Shown piece by piece: positions 40,972 through 56,741 of a stretch of DNA of 64,000 bases. Within the stretch, counting starts at the first letter, position 1, and every line of letters begins with the position of its first letter. The notes beneath the pieces are model-generated. The model searched no databases. It had not been told where the DNA came from and saw only the letters and a program-made list of their open reading frames with translations. Position numbers and translations under genes: made by a program. Origin of the DNA: Dehalococcoidia bacterium (GTDB taxonomy: Bacteria; Chloroflexota; Dehalococcoidia; Lucifugimonadales; QGNO01); NCBI GenBank assembly GCA_965249115.1, contig CBDFLI010000001.1, positions 282,908 through 346,907 on the forward strand, given 5' to 3'.

Positions 40972-42246
40972 TTGAAACATCGCCTGGGGATTTTGCTGGC
41001 ACCGGGAATTGGCCTTAAGCGCTGGTTGGCACTCTTCGTTTTCGGTCTGGGGTTATTCGGACTTGGAGTCGCGTTCGTTATAGCCGTGCCAATTAGTTCC
41101 AAGATGTTGCCGGTCCTCCGTTCCGTTACCCTGTCGGGTTTCCCTCCCCTTGTCCGTGGCGTAGTTTTCATCCTGCTGGGTTCAGGCTTGGGTGGGTTCG
41201 CTCTTTACAGATTCTACCGCGTGTTCATTTCTGGTATCCAACTGGGAAACGGGAGGGTAGATATCCTCACCACGTTGGACCAAAGACGGCGGTTGCAGCA
41301 TGGTCTGCGCATAGTCGCAATTGGTGGAGGGACGGGACTAACTGCCGTGCTCAGGGGGCTTAGGCATGAGACAAGCAACCTGACGGCTATAGTTACGATA
41401 TCCGACGACGGTGGTAGTTCTGGGCGCCTAAGAGACGACCTTGATATCCCGCCTATGGGAGATGCCCGGAGTTGTCTCGTAGCGCTGTCGCAAGCCGAAC
41501 CTCAGCTGGAAGAGTTGTTCCGCTATCGTTTCACCGGTGAGTCGTACTTAGAGGGCCACAGTCTGGGTAATCTCCTTCTGGCGGCGTTATACAAATTGAA
41601 CGGAGGCATCTCCGAGTCGCTTGAGGCGGCAGCCCGGCTACTTTCTCTATCGGGCCGGGTTCTGCCCGTGGCAACCGATAGCCATATTGTTTTAATGGGG
41701 GAGACCACCTCCGGTGAGGTCTTGAAGGGCGAGTCGGCAGTTGGCCATGCCCCAAGCAGACTGCAACGCGTATGGATCACTCCGGTAGAGACCTCCGCTA
41801 GCGAAGCTGCATTGGAGGCCATTAGAAATGCCGAATTAATCGTCATCGGACCAGGGAGTCTCTACACCAGCATAATACCTAATTTCTTGATAGGTGGCAT
41901 ATCTGAGGCTGTTGAAGATTCGTCTGCCCCAAAGGTTTTCATCTGCAACGTAGCGACCCAGCCCGGCGAGACCGATGGATACGGAGTGAGGGACCACCTC
42001 GAGGCATTCAAGGCACACGCGGGCATAAATGTTACTCATCTGTTGTTTAACAACAAAGTGGAGTCGCTGCCAGAACAGCGTGGACTGACGCCGGTTGGTC
42101 CGGATTACCAGTTCGACGAGCTCGGCTGCATTGTGATCCAGGCGGATGTGATAGACAAGACCCACCCCACGCGTCATGACCCCCGAAAGCTCGCCCGGGT
42201 TCTTACAGCCGTTCGCCGCGGTTCAAAGCGAGCCAGTACCGCTTAA
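40972..42246 (+). CDS. yvcK: YvcK/CofD-family gluconeogenesis-factor-like protein with N-terminal TM segment
   Basis: IVAIGGGTGLTAVLRGL...AIVTISDDGGSSGRLRDDLDIPPMGDARSCLVAL. TTG start. Confidence 0.8.
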   Translation: MKHRLGILLAPGIGLKRWLALFVFGLGLFGLGVAFVIAVPISSKMLPVLRSVTLSGFPPLVRGVVFILLGSGLGGFALYRFYRVFISGIQLGNGRVDILTTLDQRRRLQHGLRIVAIGGGTGLTAVLRGLRHETSNLTAIVTISDDGGSSGRLRDDLDIPPMGDARSCLVALSQAEPQLEELFRYRFTGESYLEGHSLGNLLLAALYKLNGGISESLEAAARLLSLSGRVLPVATDSHIVLMGETTSGEVLKGESAVGHAPSRLQRVWITPVETSASEAALEAIRNAELIVIGPGSLYTSIIPNFLIGGISEAVEDSSAPKVFICNVATQPGETDGYGVRDHLEAFKAHAGINVTHLLFNNKVESLPEQRGLTPVGPDYQFDELGCIVIQADVIDKTHPTRHDPRKLARVLTAVRRGSKRASTA

Positions 42247-42939: not shown

Positions 42940-43017
42940 TCTACGGTCTGAATTGACGGCGAAGTGCGTGCCATACCGGCCCATAGCGGCGGTTGAATTG
43001 TGTCTGGAGGTGCTGTG

Positions 43018-43617
43018 ATGGCCTTACGGTGGTATGTTGCTCGTACCAGACCCCTGACGGAGTACTCCGCCAGGAAAGTCATCGAACGTGCCGGCATTGA
43101 GGTGTTTTTGCCGTGTATCCATACTCTACGACCCCGCCCTGGTCGTGGAAATGCACCATTGTTCCCGGGATATATTTTCCTCCGCTATGACCTGGAGGAA
43201 CTGGGCTGGCAGCCCCTGGGCCGGTATCCTCAGCTTTTGGCGCTCGTAGCCTTCGATGGGGCCGTGCCGTACCTGCCCGATGAAGTCATCGCCGAGTTGG
43301 CCCAGCGCGTAGAGGCCTTCAACGAGCGCGGTGAACTATTGACCCGTTTCCACCCCGGCGACTGGGTACACGTTTCCATCGGATCTGTGGACAGCCTTGC
43401 TCAGGTAGTCGCCGAGGCAGGGTCATCGCGGCAACGTGTAAAGGTCTTAATGGAGTTTATGGGCCGCATGATCTCAGCCCAGGTGCCATGGCAGAGCCTG
43501 CGCTCGGCTCAAGATTACGGGCCATCCGCATATGGGATGCATAGGGGTCCTCGTCGGACCAGAGGAAGAGGCCGGTGGGTCAGGGGCTTCGGGCCCCGGG
43601 TTCCCGCCAGCGTGTAG
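43018..43617 (+). CDS. Specialised NusG paralog (NGN + KOW) with Arg/Gly-rich tail
   Basis: RWYVARTRPLTEYSARKVIERAGIEVFLP...PLFPGYIFLRYD (NGN); FHPGDWVHVSIGSVDSLAQVV (KOW). GGAGG RBS before ATG 43018. Confidence 0.75.
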   Translation: MALRWYVARTRPLTEYSARKVIERAGIEVFLPCIHTLRPRPGRGNAPLFPGYIFLRYDLEELGWQPLGRYPQLLALVAFDGAVPYLPDEVIAELAQRVEAFNERGELLTRFHPGDWVHVSIGSVDSLAQVVAEAGSSRQRVKVLMEFMGRMISAQVPWQSLRSAQDYGPSAYGMHRGPRRTRGRGRWVRGFGPRVPASV

Positions 43618-43698: not shown

Positions 43699-43914
43699 CC
43701 GGTTGAATTCCGGGATGGCGGAGCTGTGAGGTATGGCGTCCAAGACCCCAAAAAGCAAACAGTCCTCGGAGACAATGGGACCAAGAGGTGTGGAATTGAA
43801 CCTGGGCCGGTTGAATTCCGGGATGGCAGAGCTGTGAGGTACGGTGTCCAAGACCCCAAAAAGCAAACAGTCCTCGGAGACAACGGGACCGAGAGGTGTG
43901 GAATTGAACCTGGG
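43699..43914 (+). repeat. 2 x 108-bp tandem direct repeat in the operon leader (103/108 identical)
   Basis: Unit 1 is 43699-43806 and unit 2 is 43807-43914. Each starts with GGTTGAATTCC and ends with the near-complement GGAATTGAACC. Confidence 0.95.
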
Positions 43915-44536
43915 AGTAATCCCCGCTAGGGGCGGGAGCAAGGGAATACCTAGAAAGAATATCAGGCCGCTCTTGGGGCGACCCCTCATTGCCTGGAGCA
44001 TCGACGCTGCCAGGGAATCGGAATATATTGACCGGTTCGTTGTCTCCACAGAGGACCCAGAGATTGCGGAGGTGGCTACCAGGGAGGGGGCAGAGGTGCT
44101 CTGGCGGCCCGCCGAGTTGGCTCAAGACGATACTACCACCGTAGCCGTCCTCCAGCAGGTCCTGAAGGAGATTGACTCCGAGGTGGTGGTATTGCTCCAG
44201 CCCACCTCGCCGGTCCGAGTTGACAACATACTGGACCGCGCCATGGAGCGTTTCTTGGAGACGGGCGTGGACTCCCTCTCCACGGGCTATATGGTGAAGG
44301 CAGTTGAGTGGGGCGCTATGCAGAACACTCCAAGGCAGAAGATCAAAGGCTTCTTCTACGATGATGGCTGCGTGATCATCAACAAGGCGTGGGTTCTGCG
44401 TCAGGGCCGGTGGTTCGGCGACACACGGGAGCCGATGATAGTAGAGAAGCACTACAACTTTGAGATAGACGACGAAGTAGACTTTTGGGCCGTCGAACGC
44501 ATCATGGACAGGCTTCTACAGCGTAGCGAAAAGTAG
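43844..44536 (+). CDS. Acylneuraminate/ulosonate cytidylyltransferase (CTP_transf_3), copy 1
   Basis: GVIPARGGSKGIPRKNIRPLLGRPLIAWSI. The start is ambiguous (GTG 43844, GTG 43898 or TTG 43904) because the 5' end lies in repeat unit 2. Confidence 0.85.
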   Translation: MSKTPKSKQSSETTGPRGVELNLGVIPARGGSKGIPRKNIRPLLGRPLIAWSIDAARESEYIDRFVVSTEDPEIAEVATREGAEVLWRPAELAQDDTTTVAVLQQVLKEIDSEVVVLLQPTSPVRVDNILDRAMERFLETGVDSLSTGYMVKAVEWGAMQNTPRQKIKGFFYDDGCVIINKAWVLRQGRWFGDTREPMIVEKHYNFEIDDEVDFWAVERIMDRLLQRSEK

Positions 44537-44547
44537 GGGGTGCAGTT

Positions 44548-45447
44548 ATGGTAAGCGGGCCAACCAACAGTAGCAACGGTGTGGGTGTACAGGCTCCTGA
44601 GAGAGTGTTTATCATCGGCGAAATTGGCATCAACCACAACGGCAGCCTTGATATCGCCAAGAAGCTAATAGATATGGCCAAGGCAGTGGGCTGCGATGCT
44701 GTCAAGTTCCAGAAGAGGACCGTTGACATAGTTTACACGCCGGAGTTCCTGGCCGAGCCCAGGGAGAGTCCTTGGGGCGCCACGCAGCGAGAGCAGAAGG
44801 AGGGACTGGAGTTCGGCAAGGAGGAGTACGATGTTATAGACGACTACTGCCGCACGGTGGCAATAGACTGGTTTGCCTCCTCTTGGGACATCCCCAGCCA
44901 GACCTTCCTGCGGCAGTACGACCTCAAGTACAATAAGGTAGCCTCTGCCATGCTCACCCATACGCCCCTGTTGGAGACCATCGCCGAGGAGGGGAAACAT
45001 ACCCTCGTCTCTACCGGGATGAGCGAGTATCCGGATATCGACAGGGCGGTGGAGATATTCAGAAAGCACGATTGCCCTTTCACGCTGATGCACTGCGTAT
45101 CAACCTACCCCGCCGCCGAAGAAGACCTGAACCTGCTTTGCATACCGGCCCTCCGGCAGCGGTACCAGTGCCCCGTTGGCTATAGCGGTCACGAGGTGGG
45201 AGTCCTTCCTGCGGTGGTGGCTGTAATGCTTGGTGCGGAGGTGGTGGAACGTCACATTACCCTGGACCGGGCTATGTACGGGAGCGATCAGGCTGCGTCC
45301 CTGGAGCAGCGCGGTCTGGAGATTGTGGTCAGGGATATACGGGGATTGCGAGAGGTGCTGGGAGACGGCAACAAGAGGGTTCTGGAGAAAGAGATACCCA
45401 TCGCTGAGAAGCTCCGCTACTTTGCGGTTGGCGGTGGGACCCCCTGA
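44548..45447 (+). CDS. NeuB-family PEP-condensing ulosonate (phosphate) synthase lacking the C-terminal SAF domain
   Basis: 299 aa: FIIGEIGINHNGSLDIAKKLIDMAKAVGCDAVKFQKR...VGYSGHEVG...VVERHITLDR. Ends where the SAF domain would begin. Confidence 0.85.
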   Translation: MVSGPTNSSNGVGVQAPERVFIIGEIGINHNGSLDIAKKLIDMAKAVGCDAVKFQKRTVDIVYTPEFLAEPRESPWGATQREQKEGLEFGKEEYDVIDDYCRTVAIDWFASSWDIPSQTFLRQYDLKYNKVASAMLTHTPLLETIAEEGKHTLVSTGMSEYPDIDRAVEIFRKHDCPFTLMHCVSTYPAAEEDLNLLCIPALRQRYQCPVGYSGHEVGVLPAVVAVMLGAEVVERHITLDRAMYGSDQAASLEQRGLEIVVRDIRGLREVLGDGNKRVLEKEIPIAEKLRYFAVGGGTP

Positions 45448-45450
45448 ACA

Positions 45451-45804
45451 ATGATTTACTGCTTTGATATTGACGGTACCATCTGCTCCAACACCGATGG
45501 TGAGTACAAGCGTGCGGAACCAGACCGCCATGTCATCCAGCGCATCAACCGCCTGGCTGAAGAGGGGCACACCATCTATCTGTACACCGCCCGGGGTTCT
45601 ACAACCGGCATTGACTGGAGGGAGTACACGCAGGAACAGCTTCAGCGCTGGGGTGTGACCTATCATGAGTTGGTCTTGGGTAAGCCCACGGCGGACGTCT
45701 ATATCGACGATAAGGCGATCAATATACGGGACTGGCTTCGTGAGGAGGTTCATGGGGTTCCCAAAAAGGCTGACCAGGGTGAAGTGATGGAACGCCATGA
45801 GTAG
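45451..45804 (+). CDS. Small HAD-superfamily phosphatase (capsule-biosynthesis phosphatase-like)
   Basis: MIYCFDIDGTIC (DxDGT motif I)...LYTARG...GKPTADVYIDDKA. Confidence 0.7.
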   Translation: MIYCFDIDGTICSNTDGEYKRAEPDRHVIQRINRLAEEGHTIYLYTARGSTTGIDWREYTQEQLQRWGVTYHELVLGKPTADVYIDDKAINIRDWLREEVHGVPKKADQGEVMERHE

Positions 45805-46786
45805 TGCTGAGCGGGTAGTTTACTTTAACGGTGAGTTCGTTCCCGAATCAGAGGCTAAAATCTCCATATATGACTCGGCCCTGATGTTCGGAGACATGGT
45901 CTTTGAGATGACCCGCTCCTTCAATAAGGCGCAGTTCAAGCTTCGTGAACACCTGGAGCGGCTCTATCGGTCCATCAATATGGTACAGATACCGGTATCC
46001 ATGTCCATCGACCAGATGGAGGGAGCGGTGTATGAGACCATCGAGGCCAATGTGCCCGCCTTCGCGGAGGATGATGAACACAGGGTGCTTATCAACGTTT
46101 CCCGCGGACCTCTCTCCATATATCAGGATGTGGTGGGAATGCCTAAGGGGCCAACCATCATCATCGCGGATTTTCCCCTGCGCTGGACGGTAGCCGGGAT
46201 GGGGCGTCTGTTCGACGTTGGGATCAACGCGGCCATCCCCTCTCAGAGAGCCATACCAGCCTATTTGCTGGACCCCAAGATCAAGAACAGGAGCCGGCTT
46301 CATTACATGATGGCCAACATAGAGGTCTCCAACTTGGAGGGAGACAACAACTGGGCCCTGCTCTTGGACCCGGACGGCCACGTCGCCGAGGGCACCGGGG
46401 ACAACTTCTTTATCGTGAAGGACGGGGTGCTCCTCACCCCGGAAGGCCGTAACATCCTGAGAGGCGTCAGCCGGGAGTACGTCCTCAAGGAACTGGCTCC
46501 TCAGTTGAGTCTTGAGGGTGTCGAGCAGAACATCGAGAAATACGATGTCTTTGCAGCCGACGAAGCCTTTATGACGGGCACCCCCTTCTCAATTCTGCCC
46601 GTCACGTCGCTGGACGGCGTACCTATCGGTGACGGGAAGGTCGGTAGGGTCACCGGGATGCTGCTGGACGCCTGGAGCGCCAATGTGGGGGTAGACATAG
46701 TCCGGCAGATCAAAGCGTGGGACTCTTCAGGTCCGGGCGCCACCTCGGATGCTCCGTCGCCATACCGGTTCAAAAGGACGCGATGA
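45797..46786 (+). CDS. Fold-type IV (BCAT/DAAT-class) PLP aminotransferase
   Basis: VYFNGEFVPESEAKISIYDSALMFGDMVFEMTRSF...GDNFFIVKDGVLLTPEGRNILRGVSR. Confidence 0.85.
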   Translation: MSSAERVVYFNGEFVPESEAKISIYDSALMFGDMVFEMTRSFNKAQFKLREHLERLYRSINMVQIPVSMSIDQMEGAVYETIEANVPAFAEDDEHRVLINVSRGPLSIYQDVVGMPKGPTIIIADFPLRWTVAGMGRLFDVGINAAIPSQRAIPAYLLDPKIKNRSRLHYMMANIEVSNLEGDNNWALLLDPDGHVAEGTGDNFFIVKDGVLLTPEGRNILRGVSREYVLKELAPQLSLEGVEQNIEKYDVFAADEAFMTGTPFSILPVTSLDGVPIGDGKVGRVTGMLLDAWSANVGVDIVRQIKAWDSSGPGATSDAPSPYRFKRTR

Positions 46787-47625
46787 ACCCCATAGGTTTC
46801 ATGCAAGGCCGTTTGTCTCCTAAAGTGGGAGACCGAATCCAGGCGTTTCCCTGGGACCACTGGCAGGAGGAGTTCCATCTGGCGACGCAACACGGGTTTC
46901 CTGTGTTGGAGTGGGTCTTTGAATCCGAGCGTTTCCAGGAGAACCCCATTTGGACGGAAGAGGGGCAGGCTCAGATGCAATCCCTTTCTAGCCAAACCGG
47001 AACTAGAGTTGAATCGGTATGCGCCGATTACTTCATGGAGCGGCCGCTATTCGGAGTTGGAGGCGATGAGCAAGAAAGGTCGGGTCTGGTACTGGAGCGG
47101 CTCATTGAATGCTGCGCGCGTCTTGGGGTCTCTTACCTGGAGATCCCCTTGGTGGACAACTCCAGCCTGCGGAGCGCGTCGGACAAGGAGGGCCTGGTGG
47201 ATGTCGTGGCCCGGTTCCTGCCGAAAGCAGTGTCGCTGGGTGTCACCTTGACCCTGGAAACTGACCTGGCACCCCAGGCGTTTCGACAGCTCTTGGAGAC
47301 CTTCGACTCCCCTAACCTCCGGGCCAACTACGACATGGGCAACAGTGCCTCCCTGGGCTACGACCCCGACGAGGAGATGGACGCCATCGGCTCCTGGATA
47401 GCCAACGTCCACGTAAAAGACCGGGTGCTTCATGGCGGAACGGTGCCCCTGGGAGCCGGGGATGCTCATCTGCCAAGGGTGTTCCGTGGTCTACGGCGCA
47501 TCGGATACTCTGGTACGTACATATTGCAGACTGCACGCCAGCCTGACGATGTCCAGGCGGCGTGCGGTTACCGCGACCAGGTCTTGAATCTAATGCAACA
47601 AACGGAGCATTCCAACGGATCTTGA
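46783..47625 (+). CDS. Xylose-isomerase-like TIM-barrel sugar(-phosphate) isomerase/epimerase
   Basis: ATGA-coupled start. GFMQGRLSP...LEWVFES...YLEIPLVDN...TLETDL...NYDMGNSASLGYD...VHVKD. Confidence 0.7.
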   Translation: MNPIGFMQGRLSPKVGDRIQAFPWDHWQEEFHLATQHGFPVLEWVFESERFQENPIWTEEGQAQMQSLSSQTGTRVESVCADYFMERPLFGVGGDEQERSGLVLERLIECCARLGVSYLEIPLVDNSSLRSASDKEGLVDVVARFLPKAVSLGVTLTLETDLAPQAFRQLLETFDSPNLRANYDMGNSASLGYDPDEEMDAIGSWIANVHVKDRVLHGGTVPLGAGDAHLPRVFRGLRRIGYSGTYILQTARQPDDVQAACGYRDQVLNLMQQTEHSNGS

Positions 47626-47626
47626 A

Positions 47627-48388
47627 TTGCGAGACCGGGTTGTTCTGGTAACGGGCTCTTCCAGAGGTATCGGGCGGGGGATAGTGGAGGGCTTTCAGAG
47701 AGAGGGCAGTACCGTCATCGTGACAGGGCGCGAGGCCGCTAGCCTGGATAAAACGTATGAGGAGCTGGCGGCCTCCTGGGGAGAGGAGCACGTGTACTCC
47801 TTCCAGGGGGACCTGACCGATGAGCAGACCATGAATGAGCTGGTCCAGACCGTCGAGACCCGTTTCTCCCGCCTGGACGTTCTGGTGTGCAACATCGGAA
47901 GTGGCAGATCTGTTCCGCCACTTTCGGAGGACCAGACCGAGTGGGACCGGGTGCTGCGAATCAACCTGCTCTCCGCCTCTGCGGCCGTCAATGCATGCGT
48001 GCCGCTGATGGAGAAAACGGGCGGTGCCATCGTACTCACATCATCAATTACCGGCCTTGAGGCCCTGGGAGCACCGGCCACCTATTCGGCGGCCAAGGCC
48101 GCCTTGAACTCCTACAGCAAAAACCTGAGCAGGCCCTTGGCTGCCAAGCGGATCCGTATCAATGTGGTGTGCCCGGGCAACATCATGTTCCAGGGTTCGG
48201 TCTGGGATAGAAGGATGGCAGAGGATCGAGAGGGAACAGTGGCGATGCTGGACCGGGATGTGCCGCTCAGCCGGTTTGGCCTCCCGGAGGAAATTGCCGA
48301 TGCAGTCGTTTTTCTTGCCTCAGAGCGAGCCTCCTTCATCACTGGTGCTTGTTTGGTGGTAGACGGTGGACAAACGCGCTCCTTCTAA
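47627..48388 (+). CDS. SDR-family oxidoreductase
   Basis: VVLVTGSSRGIGRGIVEGF...YSAAKAAL catalytic YxxxK. TTG start. Confidence 0.85.
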   Translation: MRDRVVLVTGSSRGIGRGIVEGFQREGSTVIVTGREAASLDKTYEELAASWGEEHVYSFQGDLTDEQTMNELVQTVETRFSRLDVLVCNIGSGRSVPPLSEDQTEWDRVLRINLLSASAAVNACVPLMEKTGGAIVLTSSITGLEALGAPATYSAAKAALNSYSKNLSRPLAAKRIRINVVCPGNIMFQGSVWDRRMAEDREGTVAMLDRDVPLSRFGLPEEIADAVVFLASERASFITGACLVVDGGQTRSF

Positions 48389-49028
48389 AATCGAGATTTC
48401 AGCCTCCACACGGGCTGATCTGGCGTCGCGGATCCGCTCGCTTCTTCAAGCCTCTATAGCTCTGAAGCAGCAGGTCATGGAAACACAGGTAGATACTATC
48501 GTGGAGATGGCAGAAGCCATCGTTCAATCCTTGCAACAGGGTGGCAAAGTATTGCTGTGTGGCAACGGTGGTTCGGCCGCCGATGCACAGCACCTCGCCG
48601 CTGAGTTGCTGGTACGTTTGCGACCACAAGTTAATCGGGAAGGCATCCCGGCAATAGCCCTGGCCATGGATACATCGTCGATGACGGCCAGCGCCAACGA
48701 CTACAGCTTCGAGGTTTACTACGCGCGCATGACCCGAGCCTTGGGCAAGCCCGGGGATGTACTTATTGGGATCACTACCTCGGGCAAGTCGCCAAACGTG
48801 GTCCAGGCTTTACAGGCTGCTCGTGAGAAGGGGATGGTAACCATGGGCTTCCTTGGCGGCGACGGTGGCTCCGCCCTGGCCGAATGCGATCTGGCCTTGG
48901 TTGTGCCCTCAACAGTGACGGGCCGCGTTCAGGAGGTCCACACTACTGTTGGGCACGCGATGATGGAACTGGTTGAAGACCTGCTGCTGGAAAGTGGCCA
49001 TCTCCTAAACGAAACTCCGCATCTATGA
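48366..49028 (+). CDS. SIS-domain sugar-phosphate isomerase, GmhA (sedoheptulose-7-P isomerase)-like
   Basis: KVLLCGNGGSAADAQHLAAELLVR...ALAMDTSSMTASANDYSFEVYYARM...GITTSGKSPNV. Confidence 0.8.
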   Translation: MDKRAPSKIEISASTRADLASRIRSLLQASIALKQQVMETQVDTIVEMAEAIVQSLQQGGKVLLCGNGGSAADAQHLAAELLVRLRPQVNREGIPAIALAMDTSSMTASANDYSFEVYYARMTRALGKPGDVLIGITTSGKSPNVVQALQAAREKGMVTMGFLGGDGGSALAECDLALVVPSTVTGRVQEVHTTVGHAMMELVEDLLLESGHLLNETPHL

Positions 49029-49852
49029 CGAACGCTTTTGATCTGACAGGGCGGGTAGCCATCATAACCGGCGGCGCCGGTTTCCTGGGCAGGCAGCACG
49101 CCGAGGCCCTGGCAACTGCGGGCGCAAACTGCGTCCTGGCGGACCTGGACGGCGACCGGGCGGCTCAAGGAGCGCAGGAGCTGTCACGGGGTCACGGCGA
49201 GCGTCCCATGCTGGGTCTCAAGGTGGACGTCACCAGGCCTGATGATGTCAGCAGACTCCTGTCGGAAACTCTGGATACTCTGGGTAAGGTGGATATCCTT
49301 ATCAACAACGCCGCCATTGATCCCAAGGTGGACGAGACGGCCTCGGTGGCGGAGTCTTGGCACGTTGAGAACCTGCCTCTGGAGGAGTGGGACCATCAGC
49401 TGAATGTTGGACTCACCGGGGCCTTCCTCTGCTGCCAGGTCATAGGCTCCCACATGACCAGCCAGGGCGGAGGAGTGATCCTGAACATCGCCTCAGATCT
49501 TTCGGTCATCGCCCCGGACCAGCGGATCTATCGAAAGCCCGATACCGAGGAGGCCCAGCAACCGGTCAAGCCTGTGACCTACTCGGTAGTCAAGACCGGG
49601 CTGATCGGGCTGACGCGCTACCTGGCGACGTACTGGGCGGGTAAGAATGTCCGGGTAAACGCCATCTCTCCTGGAGGAGTCTATAACGGGCAACCCCAGG
49701 AGTTTGTTGACCGGCTGGCGGACCTTATTCCTATGGGTCGCATGGCCGTTCCCGGGGAGTACCAGGCGGCGGTGGTGTTCCTGGTCTCGGACGCCTCCTC
49801 CTACATGACGGGGCAAAACCTGGTCATGGACGGCGGCCGTACCGTGTGGTAG
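49025..49852 (+). CDS. SDR-family oxidoreductase
   Basis: VAIITGGAGFLGRQHAEAL...YSVVKTGL. ATGA-coupled. Its last 48 nt are duplicated at 50806-50853. Confidence 0.85.
   Translation: MTNAFDLTGRVAIITGGAGFLGRQHAEALATAGANCVLADLDGDRAAQGAQELSRGHGERPMLGLKVDVTRPDDVSRLLSETLDTLGKVDILINNAAIDPKVDETASVAESWHVENLPLEEWDHQLNVGLTGAFLCCQVIGSHMTSQGGGVILNIASDLSVIAPDQRIYRKPDTEEAQQPVKPVTYSVVKTGLIGLTRYLATYWAGKNVRVNAISPGGVYNGQPQEFVDRLADLIPMGRMAVPGEYQAAVVFLVSDASSYMTGQNLVMDGGRTVW
49803..49850 (+). repeat. 48-bp perfect direct repeat, copy 1 (3' end of SDR gene)
   Basis: acatgacggggcaaaacctggtcatggacggcggccgtaccgtgtggt, identical to 50806-50853. Confidence 0.95.
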
Positions 49853-49917: not shown

Positions 49918-50748
49918 TTGGAGGACGCCATGAAAAGAAGTCCGATGGCTAGGCGGTTGCATCGAATTGTGAAGGAGAGGCTTGGAATACGTGCTGTAAA
50001 CTACCCCCCACTACCCACCGAACATGATCCCATCAAGCAAATGAAGAGGCAGGCTAAAGTCAAAGACGGGAACCGGTTTGATTTCCACCTTTTGCAGTTG
50101 CTGGAAGAGTCTTTCTCCTACGATTACGATACTCCGGGGCTCAGAAGTGCCAAGGACAGGATGCGTTATCTTCTTACGTGCTATGAGCTGTTCAAGAAAG
50201 TGGTGACGATACCCGGCCATATTGTCGAAGTAGGCGTCTATAGGTGATTAACCGCCATGTTGTTTGGTCACTTCATCGAGTTGTTCAACCAGCAACCGTT
50301 TAGACAATACTTCGGATTCGATACCTTCGAAGGGTTTGCAACAGAGGACCTTGTAGGGGAGGCTGACACTGTGCCGCTGGCAGGCAATTTCCTCAATACC
50401 AGCTATGAGTTCGTGACGGCGCTGGCCCAACGCCAGGGATATCACCATATGCATTTCGTGAAAGGTGATGTGAAGGATACCTTGCCCCGTTTCCTGGAGG
50501 AACGTCCGGATTTCAAGGTCGCCCTTCTGTACATCGATTGTGATGTGTACCTTCCTACGAAACTTACTCTGGAGCACCTCATTCCCAGGATGCAGAGCGG
50601 TGGGATCATTGCTTTTGACGAGTACAACCACTGGCCCGAAATGCAAGGAGAGACCAGGGCTGCCGACGAGGTCCTGCGCCAGTATGGCCTGCGACTAGAG
50701 GTGCTCGAACCTCCATCCACCATTAGCGCATATTGCAGAGTGGATTGA
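49918..50748 (+). pseudogene. TylF/MycF-like class I SAM-dependent methyltransferase interrupted by in-frame TGA (50245-50247)
   Basis: Track ORFs 49918..50247 and 50257..50748 are in the same frame: ...IVEVGVYR-TGA-LTAMLF...GFDTFEGF...LLYIDCDVYLPT...GGIIAFDEY. The TGA sits where the family has Gly. Confidence 0.7.
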
Positions 50749-50888: not shown

Positions 50889-51593
50889 ATGACCATGCAA
50901 CAGCAGCCCTGTTTAGCGATAATTCCAGCTCGTGGTGGCTCCAAACGGATTCCACGCAAGAATATCCGGGACTTATGTGGCAAGCCGGCTATCGCATACA
51001 CCATCGAGGCGGCGCTGCAAAGCGGTATCTTCTCCCAGGTCGTTGTGAGTACTGATAGCGACGAGATAGCTGAGGTGGCAGGACGCTATGGCGCGGACGT
51101 CCCCTTCATGCGGGACTCCAACCTGGCCGATGACTACACGCCGGTGTCTCTGGTGACTGTGGATGCCCTGAAAAGGCTTGATCCCCATGGTACGTCCTTT
51201 CAGCGTGTGGCACAGTTGATGCCTAACTGCCCCCTTCGGACGGCAGAAGACATCAGGAACAGCCACCGGCAGTTCATAGAGACGGGAGCCGATTCCCAGA
51301 TATCGGTGACCCGCTACGGATGGCTAAACCCCTGGTGGGCCATGACGCTGGGCGACGGAAACCGTATAGCCCTCGTCCATGATGTGCAGATGAATTCTCG
51401 GAGTCAGGACCTGCCGGAGGTCTACTGCCCCACCGGTGCCATTTGGTGGGCCAAGGCAGATGCATTGCGACGTGAAAAGACGTTTCACATACCTGATCGG
51501 ACCGGGTGGGAAATCTCCTGGCAGCGAGCAGTGGACATAGATACAGAAGAAGACTGGCAACTGGCCGAACTACTTATGCAGGTGCGCCCGTAG
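50889..51593 (+). CDS. Acylneuraminate-type cytidylyltransferase (CMP-nonulosonate synthetase), copy 2
   Basis: CLAIIPARGGSKRIPRKNIRDLCGKPAIAYTIEAAL...FMRDSNLADDYTP. Confidence 0.85.
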   Translation: MTMQQQPCLAIIPARGGSKRIPRKNIRDLCGKPAIAYTIEAALQSGIFSQVVVSTDSDEIAEVAGRYGADVPFMRDSNLADDYTPVSLVTVDALKRLDPHGTSFQRVAQLMPNCPLRTAEDIRNSHRQFIETGADSQISVTRYGWLNPWWAMTLGDGNRIALVHDVQMNSRSQDLPEVYCPTGAIWWAKADALRREKTFHIPDRTGWEISWQRAVDIDTEEDWQLAELLMQVRP

Positions 51594-51603
51594 AGTTAGG
51601 AAA

Positions 51604-52515
51604 ATGATAGCAACGGCACGACTGGCGCTGTATACCACAGTATATCCAGGCGTTGAAAAGTACTTGCTCGCCTGGCACGACTCCGTGCTTACCCAGACCG
51701 ACCGAAACTTTGATTTATGGATTGGCGTTGATCAGCTCAGTGTTGATTCGCTGAAACACGCAATTCAAGAAGAGGTAGGTACGGTATGGGTAAAAGGTGA
51801 TGAAGGAGACTCACCGGCCCTGGTCCGCCAGAGAGCAATCGAACTGATTGTTAGTGAATATCCCGCGGTGGTGTTTGTTGATAGCGACGACATACTGGCG
51901 CCAACACGAGTAGAAGCTGCCAGGGAACTACTGGAAAAGTATGATGTCATCGGCTGCGCGATGCGCATTATCGACGAAAAAGGGGATGATCTGGGGGTCA
52001 CTTTTAATGTACCCCAAGGCACAGACCTATCCAGCATATTGCCGCGGCACAACATTTTCGGATTGTCGAATTCTGCATACCGTTGCACTGTCCTTCGAAA
52101 TTGTCTGCCGATTCCCCTTGAAGTGGAATTGATTGACTGGTATCTGGTTACAAGGGCATGGATATCCGGGGCAACTTTGAGCTTCGACCACACTTCCCGA
52201 ATGGCTTACCGCCAGCATTCCAACAATATCGCGCGAGTTTTGCCTCCTTTCACACAGAATCAAATTCTCTCTGCCACGGAGCGTGTCCTTAACCATTACG
52301 ATCTGTTCCTGTCAAATGGCCAGGAGCTTGAACTGCCATTTAAACAGCACCTGACACACTCTCGTAACTACGTGGAAAGGTTTTGCACAGCCATGAGAAG
52401 TTCACGGGTTTTATTGGAGCGCTATGCGGAGGCCTTAAACCAATTGCCAGCAAAGCACGTCTGGTGGTCATGTGTTGCACACACAGAACTGGAGGGTATA
52501 TGGACAGGAAAGTAG
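51604..52515 (+). CDS. Glycosyltransferase family 2-like protein
   Basis: VVFVDSDDILAP (DxD-like). Family-2-like N-terminal half. No TM segments. Confidence 0.6.
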   Translation: MIATARLALYTTVYPGVEKYLLAWHDSVLTQTDRNFDLWIGVDQLSVDSLKHAIQEEVGTVWVKGDEGDSPALVRQRAIELIVSEYPAVVFVDSDDILAPTRVEAARELLEKYDVIGCAMRIIDEKGDDLGVTFNVPQGTDLSSILPRHNIFGLSNSAYRCTVLRNCLPIPLEVELIDWYLVTRAWISGATLSFDHTSRMAYRQHSNNIARVLPPFTQNQILSATERVLNHYDLFLSNGQELELPFKQHLTHSRNYVERFCTAMRSSRVLLERYAEALNQLPAKHVWWSCVAHTELEGIWTGK

Positions 52516-53531
52516 AACTGGCGGGACACTTGATTGGTCCTGGTGAACAGCCGTACATCATTGCGGAGATCGGGGCAAACCACAACGGGGATATGGCGCT
52601 TTGCCGTCGTCTCATCGATGCCGCTGTTGAATCTAGGGCAGACGCTGTGAAGTTGCAGTCATGGACAGATAAAAGTCTGTTCTCAAAGGGTGTGTATGAG
52701 GAGAGTCCGGACCTCCACGGCGAGGTTAGACGGTACCAGTTGTCTATCGAACAACACCTAGAAATACAAGAGTATTGTAAATCAAAGGGGGTCACCTTTT
52801 TCTCAACGCCAGTCTCAATGGCTGAAGCAGATATGCTCGAAGAAATGGATGTCCCCTTCTATAAAATAGCCTCTATGGACGTCAATCATTTACCCTTCCT
52901 TCGTCATGTTGCCCGTAAGAAAAGGCCGATGGTGATTTCCACTGGTATGGCTACGTTAAGTGAGATCGAACAGGCTGTAAACGTTGTTCGTGGCGAAGGG
53001 AACGAAGAGATAGTATTGCTGCATTGTGTTGCTCTTTACCCACCAGACTTCGATATTGTGAATCTACGAAATATTGGAATGCTTTCGGATATTTTTGGTG
53101 TGCCGGTTGGCTTTAGCGACCATACCGTTGGTATTGGGTGTTCGTTGGCAGCTGTTGCATTGGGAGCATGTGTTATAGAGAAGCACTTCACCCTTGACAA
53201 AAACATGGAAGGCTGGGACCACTCCATCTCTGCAGATCCGGCCGATATGGCACTACTAGTCCAGGAAGGACACAACATCCAGCGTTCCCTCGGCAATTAT
53301 AATCGTACGGTAAGTGCGGATGAGATCGAGAAAGCCAAGTTAATGCGGCCGTCTCTGGTGATGAGGCAAGCAATGAGAAGCGGCGACATTGTCACAGAGC
53401 ATGACCTGGACTTCAAACGTCCGGGCACTGGCATAAGACCTGATGAGATGCATTACGTTGTTGGTCGCAGGTTGGTGAAAGATGTGGAGGAAGATGAACT
53501 ACTTCTGTGGAACCACCTACAGGAGCGTTAG
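52500..53531 (+). CDS. neuB: Nonulosonic acid synthase (NeuB/LegI/PseI type) with SAF domain
   Basis: ATG 52500 inside the track ORF. PYIIAEIGANHNGDMALCRRLIDAAVESRADAVKLQ...VGFSDHTVG...VIEKHFTLDK. C-terminal SAF: GDIVTEHDLDFKRPGTGI. Confidence 0.9.
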   Translation: MDRKVELAGHLIGPGEQPYIIAEIGANHNGDMALCRRLIDAAVESRADAVKLQSWTDKSLFSKGVYEESPDLHGEVRRYQLSIEQHLEIQEYCKSKGVTFFSTPVSMAEADMLEEMDVPFYKIASMDVNHLPFLRHVARKKRPMVISTGMATLSEIEQAVNVVRGEGNEEIVLLHCVALYPPDFDIVNLRNIGMLSDIFGVPVGFSDHTVGIGCSLAAVALGACVIEKHFTLDKNMEGWDHSISADPADMALLVQEGHNIQRSLGNYNRTVSADEIEKAKLMRPSLVMRQAMRSGDIVTEHDLDFKRPGTGIRPDEMHYVVGRRLVKDVEEDELLLWNHLQER

Positions 53532-53688
53532 GGTGAACGACGAGAATAGTGTATATGGAAATGGTAGATGTTAATCCACCATGCCTAAAGGCTTAGATAG
53601 CATCCACGCCTTGGGTCGCTATCGCGGGGCCACCGTAGGAGTGGAGTACGCAGAGGCGTTCATGCTGGTGAGGGAAGTTGAGTAGATA

Positions 53689-54663
53689 ATGAAGTTCGTG
53701 TACTTCGGTGATGGCTTATGGGCTACGAAGTGTCTTGAGCGTCTTCGGGAAGAGGGGCATCAGCCGTTGGCTGTTATCCTACGGCGCAAGCCGTCTGACG
53801 AGACTCTGGCAGCGTTCGCCCAACAGTCGGGCATCCCCGTGCATGTACCTGAGCAGGTCAATAACCCCGAGTTCGTAGGCTGGGTGCGCTCAATAAGGCC
53901 GGACCTGAACATTTCAATGTCCTACGACCAAATCTTCCGTCAGGCCATTCTTGAGTCAGCCCCGTTGGGATTTATCAACTGCCATGCGGGAAAGCTGCCC
54001 TATTACCGGGGGCGAAATGTCATCAACTGGGCCATCATTAACAATGAGCAGGAGATTGGGCTTACTGTCCACTATATGGATGAGGGAATCGATACGGGTG
54101 ACATTATTCTTCAGTCCACCTTACCTATTACTTGGGGTGACACCTACGGGACCGTATTGCAGAAGGTACAGGATGCCTTTTCGGAAGTGGTGGCAGAGGC
54201 CGTGCGGCTCATCGAAAGGAATGAGGTGCAGAGGCAACCCCAGGTGCACATGGAAGGGACCTATTTCAGCGCTCGTGTTCCTGGTGATGAATGGATTTAC
54301 TGGAATGACACAAGTTTGAACATCTATAACAAAATCCGGGCCATTACCCATCCTGGACCTGGGGCGCGAACTCTTTTGGGACATGGGACCCAGATCGTCT
54401 GGGAGGCGTATTACGATAAAGGTTGGCCTAAATATATAGCAACACCCGGTGAGATTGTTGAAGTCTTGCCAGGCAAAGGAGTCAAGGTAAAGACGGGGGA
54501 TTCCGTTTTGCTCTTGACGAGAGTCCAATCGGAGGGTGAGTCTGAACCGGAGCAAACACCCAAATTCCGGATTGGTACTCGCTTTGGCATTAACCTCACA
54601 GAGGATGTATATCGGCTCCAGCGAGATGTGGAAGACCTGCGTAAGCTAGTCGGTAGTAAGTAG
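53689..54663 (+). CDS. Formyltransferase (Fmt/ArnA-N-like)
   Basis: GFINCHAGKLPYYRGRNVINWAIINNEQEIGLTVHYMDEGIDTGDIILQ (HxSLLPxxRG-type motif variant). Confidence 0.8.
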   Translation: MKFVYFGDGLWATKCLERLREEGHQPLAVILRRKPSDETLAAFAQQSGIPVHVPEQVNNPEFVGWVRSIRPDLNISMSYDQIFRQAILESAPLGFINCHAGKLPYYRGRNVINWAIINNEQEIGLTVHYMDEGIDTGDIILQSTLPITWGDTYGTVLQKVQDAFSEVVAEAVRLIERNEVQRQPQVHMEGTYFSARVPGDEWIYWNDTSLNIYNKIRAITHPGPGARTLLGHGTQIVWEAYYDKGWPKYIATPGEIVEVLPGKGVKVKTGDSVLLLTRVQSEGESEPEQTPKFRIGTRFGINLTEDVYRLQRDVEDLRKLVGSK

Positions 54664-54684
54664 TGAAAGGATCAAATCGTAAGT

Positions 54685-55749: not shown

Positions 55750-56741
55750 GCGGTAGAGCCAATTGGGCCAATCGGACCGTGCTTGTAACAGGTGCGGGTG
55801 GCTTCATTGGTAGTCATTTGACGGAGCGCCTGGTGGCCCTTGGCGCCCGCACACGAGCTTTCATACGCTACAACTCGGCCAATTCATGGGGGTGGCTAAA
55901 CAACTCTCCGGTGAAAGATGATATTGAGGTCATGGCAGGCGATATCCGTGACCCAGAGAGCCTGCAACCAGCGACTCGGGGAGTTGACGTCGTATTTCAC
56001 CTGGCTGCTCTGATCGCAATCCCCTACTCATACAAAGCTCCCCTCTCATTTGTACGGACAAATGTTGAGGGGACCCTGAACGTGCTTCAAGTGGCCAAAA
56101 ATGCTGGAGTGCAACTGGTGGTTCACACATCTACCAGCGAAGTGTACGGGACGGCCCGTTATATTCCCATCGATGAAGGCCACCCGTTGCAAGGGCAGTC
56201 GCCCTACTCGGCGAGCAAGATTGGGGCCGACATGATCGCTGAGGCTATTGGCCGCTCTTTTGATCTTTCCGTTGCCGTCATCCGACCTTTTAATACCTAT
56301 GGGCCACGACAGTCGGCTCGGGCAGTTATTCCAACCATTGTCACCCAGGCTCTGACTGACTCTGCCGTGTATCTTGGCAGTCTGGAACCAACTCGAGACT
56401 TCAACTATGTCGCCGACACTGTTGAAGGGTTTATCCGTACCGCCGAATCTTCCAAGGCCGCCGGTGAAGTCATCAATGTCGGATCAGGGCAAGAGATTTC
56501 GATTGGGGATCTGGTGAAGATGATCTTCGAAAAGGTCGGGCGAGAAATACCGGTCGTCCATGACGATCAACGAGTCCGTCCGTCGTATAGTGAGGTGGAG
56601 CGGCTCTGTGCAGACAATAGTAAGGCGCAAGAGCTACTCGGCTGGCAGCCACGGTACACGCTGGATGATGGGCTCACCGAAACCATAGGGTGGATAAAAG
56701 AAAATCTTGGAAACTACCGGCTCGGCACGTATACGGTCTGA
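55746..56741 (+). CDS. NAD-dependent NDP-sugar epimerase/4,6-dehydratase (extended SDR)
   Basis: VLVTGAGGFIGSHLTERL...STSEVYG...YSASKIG. ATGA-coupled. Confidence 0.85.
   Translation: MSGRANWANRTVLVTGAGGFIGSHLTERLVALGARTRAFIRYNSANSWGWLNNSPVKDDIEVMAGDIRDPESLQPATRGVDVVFHLAALIAIPYSYKAPLSFVRTNVEGTLNVLQVAKNAGVQLVVHTSTSEVYGTARYIPIDEGHPLQGQSPYSASKIGADMIAEAIGRSFDLSVAVIRPFNTYGPRQSARAVIPTIVTQALTDSAVYLGSLEPTRDFNYVADTVEGFIRTAESSKAAGEVINVGSGQEISIGDLVKMIFEKVGREIPVVHDDQRVRPSYSEVERLCADNSKAQELLGWQPRYTLDDGLTETIGWIKENLGNYRLGTYTV

Follow-up and report, generated by a model that had tools for sequence, protein, structure and literature searches.

A widespread gene module that pairs a GmhA-type isomerase with a SAF-less NeuB-family synthase, and its possible role in amino-ulosonic acid synthesis

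The eight genes at 43844-49852 of the window (the whole 64,000-nucleotide stretch of DNA that was analysed) are a 'type B' version of a widespread module; the combination is not unique, since the block belongs to a large, conserved family. We tentatively propose, from sequence comparison and with a little less than even confidence, that it builds and CMP-activates an amino-ulosonic acid by a Kdo-like logic, with different enzyme families and a heptose-7-P acceptor. The GmhA-type isomerase would convert a ketose phosphate into a manno-configured aldose phosphate, most likely sedoheptulose-7-P to yield D-glycero-D-manno-heptose-7-P. The SAF-less synthase (NeuB*) would condense the aldose phosphate with PEP to a 3-deoxy-2-ulosonate phosphate, of ten carbons if the acceptor is a heptose, and the small HAD enzyme would remove the terminal phosphate. 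One SDR would then oxidise a hydroxyl group, giving a ketone. At the adjoining carbon the TIM-barrel enzyme would epimerise or dehydrate, the fold-type IV aminotransferase would replace the ketone by an amine, and the second SDR would carry out a further redox step. Finally, the NeuA-like enzyme would supply the CMP-sugar for the surface glycan of the surrounding operon. What the analysis shows directly are gene content, family assignments, conserved catalytic residues, synteny and fusions; substrates, order of the dephosphorylation and tailoring steps, carbon number and product are what we infer in this scheme.

Gene content and recurrence of the block

All eight open reading frames were found on the forward strand, and Pfam searches bore out the domain calls that a preliminary description of this DNA had made for each. 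With their flanking genes they are:

43000-43617, +, NusG-like (UpxY/LoaP-type) antiterminator paralogue directly upstream, heading the glycan operon (Pfam NusG, E 6e-13)
43844-44536, +, CMP-ulosonic-acid synthetase-like cytidylyltransferase (NeuA-like; CTP_transf_3, PF02348, E 1e-27, N-terminal half only)
44548-45447, +, SAF-less NeuB-family PEP-condensing synthase (NeuB*), 299 aa (NeuB, PF03102 only)
45451-45804, +, minimal cap-less HAD phosphatase, 117 aa (weak Pfam HAD matches)
45797-46786, +, fold-type IV aminotransferase (AT4; Aminotran_4, PF01063)
46717/46783-47625, +, xylose-isomerase-like TIM-barrel enzyme (AP_endonuc_2, PF01261)
47627-48388, +, classical SDR oxidoreductase 1 (SDR1; adh_short and adh_short_C2)
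48366-49028, +, GmhA-type sedoheptulose-7-P isomerase (SIS; SIS_2)
49025-49852, +, SDR oxidoreductase 2 (SDR2; adh_short in two stretches)
49918-50748, +, TylF-like O-methyltransferase, disrupted (PF05711 on the C-terminal part)

The genes had been described as tightly coupled by overlaps; all eight are present, but of the seven junctions no more than four are overlaps (HAD/AT4, 8 nt; AT4/TIM barrel, 4 nt with the ATG at 46783; SDR1/SIS, 23 nt; SIS/SDR2, 4 nt), the others being gaps of 11, 3 and 1 nt. No terminator-like site was found on the forward strand within the block, and the eight genes are co-transcribed. For the NeuA-like protein the TTG at 43904, after GAGAGGTG, is the probable start codon; the first 60 nt of its open reading frame fall within a 108-bp tandem duplication. 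The TylF-like gene is interrupted by an in-frame TGA (50245-50247). Such genes accompany NeuB* in several loci, and the functional unit probably reaches to this candidate accessory gene.

Loci with almost the same synteny are found in Actinomycetota, Chloroflexota, Syntrophus and Lachnospiraceae. Locus L009 has the order NeuB*-NeuA-HAD-AT4-TIM-SDR1-SIS-SDR2 at 45-75% identity, and L022, L024, L011 and L077 are similar; these genes keep their order in unrelated phyla, and chance falls far short of explaining the arrangement. In type A, which is commoner, a class III aminotransferase, a VOC protein and a methyltransferase are found instead, and the aminotransferase slot is interchangeable between class IV, class III with VOC, and DegT with GNAT. 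Partners were counted in 39 NeuB* loci whose flanks measure 7 kb or more. The most constant are the GmhA-type isomerase (about 25 loci) and the HAD phosphatase (26), which are often fused together, as beside NeuB* in Lachnospiraceae and Magnetospirillum; two different HAD subfamilies occupy the phosphatase slot. HldE occurs in only two. Roughly one-third of the loci have no SIS or HAD nearby, and minimal loci consist of NeuB* and SIS-HAD with no tailoring genes.

None of the eight proteins reaches the curated NCBIfam equivalog cut-offs for Neu5Ac, Pse, Kdo, GmhA or BCAT enzymes, so the family models leave the enzyme specificities undefined. The earlier view that the combination maps to no characterised pathway agrees with this: no characterised cluster was matched, and the RefSeq annotation of a cultured carrier of the module is generic. 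Nor did the searchable full-text literature yield any pathway that combines a NeuB synthase with a GmhA-type isomerase.

Isomerase, synthase and the likely acceptor

Every top PDB match of SIS is a GmhA (E 3e-48). Its identity is 51.6% to the B. pseudomallei enzyme and 45-55% across the solved GmhAs; the P. aeruginosa and B. pseudomallei GmhAs share 44.9%. All four Zn/catalytic residues (H, E, Q, H) and the phosphate loop (TSGKS) are kept, and the alignment has no indels near the phosphate and catalytic loops. SIS is a single SIS_2 domain with no CBS pair, and neither the family models nor the PDB gave a KdsD match. It groups with GmhA, not KdsD, and to judge from these features is a genuine GmhA.

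NeuB* lacks the SAF domain, scores 234 bits against the Neu5Ac synthase cut-off of 399.65 and falls below the PseI equivalog cut-off too; as had been suspected, it is not an ordinary Neu5Ac synthase. Its best PDB match, 6ncs, is likewise SAF-less. Relatives at 60-75% identity number in the thousands and span many phyla of both bacteria and archaea; there are more than 8000 close homologues, 273-320 aa long. NeuB* shares with the Man-6-P-specific Kdn-9-P synthetase of P. parvum the features KFQKR, an extended loop, G[YF]SGH and ERH[IF]T, all missing from 6ncs and the SAF-type NeuBs; we suggest from these common motifs that NeuB* uses a phosphosugar. In overall identity NeuB* is barely closer to the Kdn-9-P synthetase (32%) than to the SAF-type NeuB2 of the same window (30%), a counterpoint to our reading. 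The HAD protein has readable motifs (FDIDGT for DxDxT, T, GKP for K, and DD) and matches the capsule-biosynthesis phosphatase TIGR01689 (E 5e-8) and PDB 9iqw (E 3.5e-12); no family model for KdsC or GmhB matched it.

The same motifs could belong to a C9 Kdn module, which we regard as somewhat unlikely. The acceptor would be Man-6-P, with NeuB* as Kdn-9-P synthase, HAD as Kdn-9-P phosphatase and NeuA as a CMP-Kdn-type synthetase. SDR, TIM-barrel enzyme and aminotransferase would turn Kdn into an amino derivative (e.g. 5-, 7- or 9-amino), and the GmhA-like enzyme would convert Fru-6-P into Man-6-P or feed heptose to another part of the glycan. The Kdn-9-P enzyme is the only characterised SAF-less phosphosugar-specific synthase that was compared by sequence, B. 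thetaiotaomicron has an established route of Kdn-9-P synthase, HAD phosphatase and CMP-Kdn synthetase, SDR2 resembles sugar-acid 5-dehydrogenases (KduD, gluconate-5-DH type), and SIS is missing from about a third of the NeuB* loci. However, SIS is as near to proven GmhAs as these are to one another. Most organisms already produce Man-6-P and the window holds a bact-PGI_C-type isomerase gene (34508-35602), so a dedicated isomerase would be redundant. Furthermore, it is just in monoderms, where heptose-7-P has no other known use, that SIS is kept: the cluster encodes it in 20 of 22 monoderm loci against 6 of 17 among diderms (Fisher p = 4e-4, with kinship ignored and many Lachnospiraceae among the loci). 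The window itself comes from an uncultured, Dehalococcoidia-like genome of the Chloroflexota. An NDP-heptose kinase or nucleotidyltransferase is almost never present. D-glycero-D-manno-heptose-7-P, giving a C10 product, is the most likely acceptor; Man-6-P, giving a C9 Kdn-type product, is possible. The GmhA could also serve a separate heptose branch, and HldE is adjacent in two to three loci. C10 CMP-ulosonic acids have been reported by mass spectrometry with no genes assigned; the analysis could not place NeuB* in M. gryphiswaldense, the organism that has C10 sugars.

The SIS-HAD fusions could mean that dephosphorylation precedes condensation. In a kanosamine/NtdABC-like route, isomerase, SDR, TIM-barrel enzyme and aminotransferase would begin by building an unusual amino-aldose phosphate; HAD would dephosphorylate it, NeuB* would join the free amino sugar to PEP in the manner of bacterial NeuB, LegI and PseI, and activation by NeuA would follow. 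The fusions suggest successive isomerase and phosphatase steps, UlaE, the nearest solved relative of the TIM-barrel enzyme, works on a ketose phosphate, and free sugars are the usual substrates of bacterial NulO synthases (PMC6200933). We nevertheless consider such a route distinctly unlikely: the NeuB* motifs match the phosphosugar-specific synthetase rather than the bacterial free-sugar NeuBs, and the minimal loci indicate that the tailoring set is not required for making the acceptor. Fusion, moreover, need not mean consecutive steps, as the fused enzyme HldE, whose activities are not consecutive, illustrates.

Tailoring and activation

AT4 scores below the BCAT cut-offs and keeps the catalytic Lys and Glu. 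In each of the eight orthologues FEMTRSF, DDEHR, KNRSR and GTPF stand in place of the substrate motifs of BCATs, and on these motifs AT4 is a distinct conserved fold-type IV subfamily. The TIM-barrel enzyme has UlaE as its best PDB match (E 6e-10) and an E-D-H-Q metal/catalytic tetrad, with Gln in place of UlaE Glu251 in nearly all module orthologues; we predict a sugar epimerase, isomerase or dehydratase. It lacks the second catalytic Glu of the two-base epimerases, a further counterpoint to our scheme. SDR1 has the YxxxK motif (TYSAAK) and an equal module position in types A and B. SDR2, 45-63% identical in related loci, carries extra residues inserted between its Ser and its YxxxK motif and is gluconate-5-DH/KduD-like; its best NCBIfam families, all below cut-off, are GolD/DthD, gluconate 5-dehydrogenase and PRK09186. 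The NeuA-like protein reaches 120 bits with the PseF model (cut-off 205.7) and lies far under the KdsB cut-offs.

The cytidylyltransferase of locus L044 is fused with a GNAT; with the interchangeable aminotransferase slot, this suggests that the amine is on the CMP-activated sugar. The earlier idea of an amino-ulosonic acid derived from a phosphorylated precursor gains support from this fusion, from the SIS-HAD fusions by NeuB* and from the Kdn-9-P synthetase motifs, which point to such a product. A different fate for the 2-keto-3-deoxy acid would make it no glycan building block itself: the BCAT-like enzyme might, for example, transaminate the C2 keto group, yielding either a polyhydroxy amino acid or an N-acyl substituent that the legionaminic-acid-type pathway next to it would use, or the genes might be accessory (PtmA-like) enzymes of that pathway. 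Alpha-keto-acid transaminases are the fold-type IV enzymes closest to AT4, and about 12 related loci have a ThDP (ALS-like) enzyme in place of NeuA, which suggests that the keto-acid group is where the chemistry takes place. Leg-type clusters adjoin NeuB* modules in the window and in A. thermophilum, and SDR2 weakly matches PRK09186, which we take to be flagellin modification protein A. Yet the BCAT carboxylate-binding Tyr/Arg motif is lost in AT4, DegT sugar aminotransferases or class III omega-transaminases can fill its slot, the L044 fusion joins GNAT and cytidylyltransferase, the block has its own cytidylyltransferase apart from the second one in the window (50889-51593), and most NeuB* loci have no Leg genes. 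Together we judge these two variants very unlikely.

Relation to characterised pathways

The Kdo pathway (KdsD, KdsA, KdsC, KdsB) likewise uses a SIS ketose-P/aldose-P isomerase, PEP condensation, a HAD phosphatase and a CMP-transferase. The block, in contrast, has a GmhA-type isomerase, a NeuB-family rather than KdsA/DAHPS synthase, a HAD outside the KdsC/YrbI family, a cytidylyltransferase remote from KdsB and four added tailoring enzymes. The Kdn pathways (B. thetaiotaomicron BT1714/BT1713/BT1715; P. parvum) also have a NeuB-family synthase needing a phosphorylated aldose, a phosphatase and CMP activation, but the synthase is only distantly similar, the block HAD is from another subfamily, and known Kdn routes have no GmhA, SDR, TIM-barrel or aminotransferase enzymes. 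With NDP-heptose synthesis the block shares the GmhA with its catalytic and Zn set, although it has NeuB*, HAD and SDRs as genomic partners where that synthesis has HldE/HddA, GmhB and HldC/HddC.

In the Kdo8N route of Shewanella, a metal-dependent alcohol dehydrogenase (KdnB) and a fold-type I aminotransferase (KdnA) act on an ulosonic acid that is already complete and make it an amino-ulosonic acid. By description this is a similar dehydrogenase and aminotransferase pair; the block has SDRs and a fold-type IV enzyme. Tailoring of the septacidin L-heptosamine uses the oxidase SepI, the TIM-barrel epimerase SepJ, the VOC epimerase SepA and the aminotransferase SepG (PMC9978623). As described, it too first oxidises a hydroxyl, then epimerises beside the ketone (TIM-barrel and VOC) and finally transaminates, on a heptose-derived sugar, and type A modules have exactly the TIM, VOC and aminotransferase set; septacidin differs in its nucleoside-linked heptose substrate, FAD-dependent oxidase in place of an SDR, and DegT-like aminotransferase. 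ElaABC of A. baumannii KL49 carries out the 8-epimerisation of CMP-legionaminic acid, with ElaA and ElaC as the redox pair that works on CMP-Leg (PMC13656337). There, too, an ulosonic acid is remodelled by oxidation and reduction, with two NAD(P)-dependent oxidoreductases and a CMP-transferase, but the Leg backbone comes from the canonical route and there is no aminotransferase, TIM-barrel, SIS or HAD enzyme.

The eight-gene block and its 5′ end

All eight plus-strand open reading frames that the preliminary description had placed in this region are present, and the Pfam assignments agree with the families it named.

Genes of the block, with Pfam matches
43844-44536, + strand: NeuA-like protein (CTP_transf_3)
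44548-45447, + strand: NeuB*, 299 aa (NeuB domain alone, SAF absent)
45451-45804, + strand: HAD, 117 aa (weak HAD matches)
45797-46786, + strand: AT4, fold-type IV aminotransferase (Aminotran_4)
46717/46783-47625, + strand: TIM, xylose-isomerase-like TIM barrel (AP_endonuc_2)
47627-48388, + strand: SDR1 (adh_short)
48366-49028, + strand: SIS (SIS_2)
49025-49852, + strand: SDR2 (adh_short)

The genes had also been described as tightly coupled through overlaps of 4-23 nt, which is true of four of the seven junctions (8, 4, 23 and 4 nt); at the remaining three the genes are separated by 11, 3 and 1 nt. No plus-strand terminator-like site was found within the block by the terminator scan; the promoter and terminator scans gave counts no higher than the shuffled expectation and are used solely for this absence. 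At the head of the operon is a NusG-like antiterminator paralogue (43000-43617), and between it and the cytidylyltransferase lies a 108-bp tandem duplication (43699-43914; 2.0 copies, 95% identical) whose second copy takes in the first 60 nt of the 43844 reading frame. Both copies carry the same Shine-Dalgarno-like GAGAGGTG followed by TTG; copy 1 opens only a 13-codon mini-ORF (MNLGRLNSGMAEL, then a stop), whereas copy 2 continues into the real cytidylyltransferase gene, the true start of which is likely to be the TTG at 43904. The duplication could act as a leader peptide or in regulation, or it could be neutral, a simple doubling of the 5′ end. No Rfam RNA family was matched across the entire window, the duplicated leader included.

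A conserved synthase, isomerase and phosphatase

Conservation of the block in other genomes, a point raised by the preliminary description, is borne out by a NeuB* scan of GTDB species genomes, which gave 80 loci (L numbers below) at 52-70% identity in Chloroflexota, Actinomycetota, Omnitrophota, Elusimicrobia, Lachnospiraceae, Pelagibacteraceae, Planctomycetota, Magnetococcales and archaea. At least 8000 NeuB* homologues are on record in the protein database, and the best 120 are all 273-320 aa long with PF03102 only. The module is common in nature and a member of a large conserved family that is entirely uncharacterised. Architectures were derived by tblastn, ORF maps and Pfam-labelled contigs. 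Type B (NeuB*-NeuA-(small HAD)-class IV AT-TIM-SDR1-SIS-SDR2) is found in the window, L009 (Solirubrobacterales), L022 and L024 (Chloroflexota), L011 (Syntrophus) and L077 (Lachnospiraceae). The commoner type A (NeuB*-(HAD-)methyltransferase-NeuA-class III AT-VOC/glyoxalase-TIM-SDR1-SDR2(-SIS)) is carried by L006, L012, L014, L017, L029, L039, L042, L054, L074 and L081. A third arrangement, in a Magnetospirillum MAG (L044), consists of SIS-HAD, NeuB*, a GNAT-cytidylyltransferase fusion, a DegT aminotransferase, TIM, a GFO/IDH/MocA oxidoreductase and SDR2. The constant core is NeuB*, the GmhA-type SIS and HAD: among the 39 loci with at least 7 kb on each side, about 25 have SIS and 26 have HAD, and at certain loci with this triad hardly anything further is conserved. 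In Lachnospiraceae and Magnetospirillum, SIS and a Cof-type HAD form one fused protein, encoded right next to NeuB*.

Profile searches place each protein of the block in its expected superfamily, and none reaches an NCBIfam equivalog cut-off. NeuB* covers the full PF03102 profile (231.6 bits), has this as its sole domain and stops 23 residues past the barrel, confirming that it lacks the SAF (antifreeze-like) C-terminal domain, which in canonical NeuB, LegI and PseI contributes Arg314 to the neighbouring active site. In contrast, a second NeuB of the window, encoded at 52500-53531, carries a SAF domain. Nor is NeuB* an ordinary Neu5Ac synthase, scoring 234.4 bits against a cut-off of 399.65 for the NeuB/NnaB equivalog TIGR03569; for PseI (TIGR03586) it reaches 186.9 bits, below the 340.25 cut-off. 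Its metal/PEP motifs GEIGINH, KFQ, GYSGHE and ERH are at least 90% conserved in the family. The closest PDB sequence is 6ncs, a likewise SAF-less “sialic acid synthetase” (E 8e-46). The Kdn-9-P synthetase of P. parvum, which has absolute specificity for Man-6-P (PMC6200933), is SAF-less too (sequence from the supplement of the same paper). Overall identity between this enzyme and NeuB* is just 32%, but they have in common KFQKR, an extended β2-α2 loop, G[YF]SGH and ERH[IF]T, where 6ncs and two SAF-type NeuBs have KFQ(A/T/S), SDH, EKH and a shorter loop. An earlier paper describes SAF-less NeuBs as an “environmental” group that had not been studied functionally (PMC8208679), and the searchable literature on SAF-less NeuBs gave no characterised counterpart of the module.

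The SIS protein is a single SIS_2 domain that retains the Zn/catalytic His, Glu, Gln and His and the TSGKS phosphate loop of GmhA; its motifs GNGGSAADAQHLAAEL, TTSGKSPN and QEVHTTVGH align to B. pseudomallei GmhA, to which it is 51.6% identical, closer than P. aeruginosa GmhA, which shares 44.9% with the same B. pseudomallei protein. All its top PDB matches are GmhA structures (E 3e-48), and a relationship to KdsD, which would have spoken against the preliminary reading, was not seen: no KdsD model or structure is among the matches and there is no CBS domain. It scores below the GmhA equivalog cut-offs (TIGR00441, 178.8 against 209.45 bits; NF010546, 206.1 against 276 bits). The partners expected for NDP-heptose synthesis would be an HldE or HddA kinase, GmhB and a nucleotidyltransferase; no kinase is encoded at 43-62 kb of the window, and an HldE-type kinase occurs in two of the 39 related loci with at least 7 kb on each side. 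We know of no fate for the GmhA product without a kinase, and NeuB* is the sole conserved aldose-consuming enzyme near the GmhA-type SIS. On these grounds we favour a heptose-phosphate as the putative acceptor of NeuB*, the GmhA/NeuB* pairing being the main, and indirect, argument. SIS is encoded in the cluster at 20 of 22 monoderm and 6 of 17 diderm loci (Fisher p = 4e-4, uncorrected for phylogeny); diderm lineages usually possess a housekeeping gmhA. GltX matches put the window itself among Dehalococcoidia-like Chloroflexota.

The HAD protein shows the superfamily motifs FDIDGT (I), YTARG (II), GKP (III) and IDDKA (IV) in its translation. HAD-family HMM matches are weak, no KdsC/YrbI or GmhB model was matched (NCBIfam and Pfam, E ≤ 0.01), and the nearest PDB entry is 9iqw, a 134-aa “capsule biosynthesis protein” (E 3.5e-12). 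Its BcbF/EcbF relatives are uninformative as to specificity, being only predicted to help fructose side-chain addition in Pasteurella capsules. Two distinct HAD subfamilies occupy the phosphatase slot; together with the Kdn-9-P synthetase motifs in NeuB*, this leads us to favour an order in which a phosphorylated aldose would be condensed by NeuB* and then dephosphorylated by HAD. The SIS-HAD fusion would also fit the reverse order, dephosphorylation before condensation. A route in which the precursor is completed first and a free amino sugar is condensed would follow that reverse order, and in view of the synthase motifs we regard it as improbable.

Tailoring enzymes and the proposed pathway

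In the NeuA-like protein, PF02348 is matched over the N-terminal half only, and scores are low against PseF (120.4 bits, cut-off 205.7) and the KdsB models (33-51 bits, cut-offs 155-281). AT4 scores 184 bits against ilvE_I (IlvE; cut-off 245.55), and its nearest PDB entries are archaeal BCATs. It keeps the catalytic Lys and Glu, but the BCAT substrate-binding motifs (FEGIR, Y95-x-R97, Y164 and GTAAE) are absent: in all eight module orthologues FEGIR is replaced by FEMTR, AYIRP by DDEHRV, K..NYL by KNRSRL and GTAAE by GTPF(S/C). AT4-type enzymes form a tight subfamily, 65-75% identical across phyla. The nearest PDB entry to TIM is UlaE (E 6e-10), and its scores against the L-Ru5P 3-epimerase models (UlaE/SgbU) are 40-45 bits, with cut-offs of 200-317. 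The E, D and H of the catalytic tetrad are conserved; in place of the fourth residue, a Glu that we take to be residue 251 of UlaE, the window protein and most of the module orthologues have Gln, within a conserved ILQxAR motif. This E-D-H-Q arrangement makes the canonical two-base 3-epimerase mechanism doubtful, and TIM could plausibly be a single-base epimerase, an isomerase or a dehydratase acting beside a carbonyl. SDR1 and SDR2 each have YxxxK, and the nearest NCBIfam families to SDR2 are sugar-acid dehydrogenases.

The aminotransferase slot is interchangeable (class IV, class III with VOC, or DegT with or without GNAT), which argues that the substrate is a backbone ketone of the sugar; the fusion of GNAT to the cytidylyltransferase points to the aminated sugar as the form that is activated with CMP. 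KdnA and KdnB, which make Kdo8N in Shewanella, differ in fold family from the enzymes of the block. There are two precedents for such tailoring: the septacidin heptosamine, made by SepI oxidation, SepJ TIM-barrel epimerisation, SepA VOC epimerisation and SepG transamination (PMC9978623), and the redox epimerisation of CMP-legionaminic acid by ElaA and ElaC (PMC13656337). The idea that C. jejuni PtmF is a SIS isomerase partnering the SDR PtmA was dropped, as the literature gives PtmF as a 326-aa oxidoreductase.

The preliminary description had read the block as following Kdo logic towards an amino-ulosonic acid derived from a phosphosugar, outside any characterised pathway. As a working hypothesis this gains support: the searchable literature gave no counterpart, SIS is GmhA-type and NeuB* falls below the Neu5Ac cut-off. 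In a Kdo-type sequence, GmhA would act first, then NeuB* and HAD, followed by oxidation, the TIM step, transamination and a second redox step, and finally CMP activation. With D-glycero-D-manno-heptose-7-P as the favoured acceptor, the product would be a C10 amino-ulosonic acid, and we tentatively suggest this pathway as the best explanation, judging it close to, but short of, probable. A C9 Kdn-type backbone made from Man-6-P is the alternative suggested by the motifs shared with the P. parvum enzyme. An isomerase just upstream of the glycan operon (34508-35602, - strand; bact-PGI_C-type SIS, bifunctional PGI/PMI family) could already supply Man-6-P, which would make a dedicated isomerase in the block redundant; the presence of a GmhA-type isomerase beside NeuB* argues for a heptose-phosphate, and we consider the C9 backbone unlikely.

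To our knowledge, genetically defined routes to date lead only to backbones of C8, as in Kdo, or C9, as in Neu, Kdn, Leg, Pse and relatives. From mass spectrometry, C10 ulosonic acids, CMP-activated forms included, have been inferred for M. gryphiswaldense and, weakly, for Methanococcus, but these studies propose no genes (PMC8157484; SugarBase preprint). No named M. gryphiswaldense protein is among the 120 best matches to the NeuB* of the Magnetospirillum MAG, and that locus has one aminotransferase, while the reported C10 sugar has up to three nitrogens. The searchable literature gave neither a link of GmhA to a NeuB synthase nor a dec-2-ulosonic (deculosonic) acid pathway. A bolder proposal, possible but on the doubtful side, is that the genes long missing for ten-carbon (“deculosonic”) CMP-sugars are those of the NeuB*/GmhA/HAD triad: sedoheptulose-7-P would be isomerised, condensed with PEP and dephosphorylated to 3-deoxy-dec-2-ulosonic acid, and lineage-specific cassettes (class IV, class III with VOC and DegT aminotransferases; ThDP enzymes) would diversify the product. 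If true, the sialic-acid-like sugars would gain a new class, with members in Chloroflexota, gut Lachnospiraceae, SAR11, Omnitrophota and archaea.

Microbial surfaces are capped with sugars of this sialic-acid-like kind, and it is these that decide how phages, the immune system and lectins recognise the cell. The module is a concrete candidate for longer-backbone CMP-ulosonic-acid chemistry, with thousands of homologues and with cultured carriers in Waltera acetigignens and Azospirillum thermophilum. Even a C9 product would mean a new amino-ulosonic-acid route, in which the isomerase is GmhA-type and the transaminase fold-type IV, and a very large protein family now labelled across the board “N-acetylneuraminate synthase” would need a corrected name.

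Surroundings of the block and of related loci

Features flanking the block
40972-42246: CofD/YvcK-like gene, just upstream of the glycan operon
49918-50748: TylF-like O-methyltransferase, downstream of the block, with an in-frame TGA at 50245-50247
50889-62290: second, canonical nonulosonic-acid set (Pfam), same orientation, right after the methyltransferase region
62334-62996, - strand: 220-aa integrase core of the rve family, at the far end of the glycan locus

The second set comprises NeuA, GT2, NeuB with SAF, a formyltransferase (N- and C-terminal domains), a CBS-nucleotidyltransferase (PtmE-like), a 4,6-dehydratase-like epimerase, a GFO/IDH/MocA oxidoreductase and a class I/II aminotransferase, which suggests an N-formylated Leg-type sugar; two large proteins within it (56920-58509 and 58538-59965) have no Pfam match. 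Wzy_C and Wzz/tyrosine-kinase genes lie upstream of the block, and these surroundings argue that the operon supplies two different ulosonic acids to a surface glycan. A NeuB* module is likewise paired with a Leg cluster on a plasmid of A. thermophilum, as might be expected if the module were accessory to Leg synthesis; we consider such a role, or a non-glycan one, very improbable. The integrase fits with the region being mobile or rearranged. The TGA in the TylF-like gene sits exactly at the expected Gly of the SAM-binding GVYRG motif (…VEVGVYR*LTAML…) and could reflect a nonsense pseudogene, a sequencing error or recoding; SelA is encoded in the genome (26087-27457, - strand).

The A. thermophilum locus (L084; strain CFH 70021, NZ_CP029359, 109870-134715), a possible experimental system, has NeuB* (WP_245987099.1) followed by a 361-aa “HAD hydrolase”, probably a HAD-SIS fusion, and a TylF-type methyltransferase, divergent from a complete LegB/LegC/NeuC/NeuB cluster. 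Beyond an IS21 insertion come SDR, SDR, TIM, SDR, methyltransferase and radical SAM genes; RefSeq gives the plasmid genes generic names only. Radical SAM genes, some with SPASM, lie beside NeuB* at about 10 of 81 loci (among them L002:10843-11679, L005, L036, L037, L041, L046, L061 and L084:23241-24728), and C-methylation would be an alternative way to an “extended” carbon backbone. At about 12 of 39 NeuB* loci (L047, L050-L052, L055, L057, L063 and L067 among them, e.g. L067:11890-13653) a ThDP enzyme (acetolactate-synthase-like, 587-601 aa) follows a HAD-SIS fusion and there is no cytidylyltransferase. NeuA and the ThDP enzyme are nearly mutually exclusive (20 and 12 loci, both in one), and in the gut Lachnospiraceae that carry the latter the keto acid may be decarboxylated or carboligated rather than activated with CMP.
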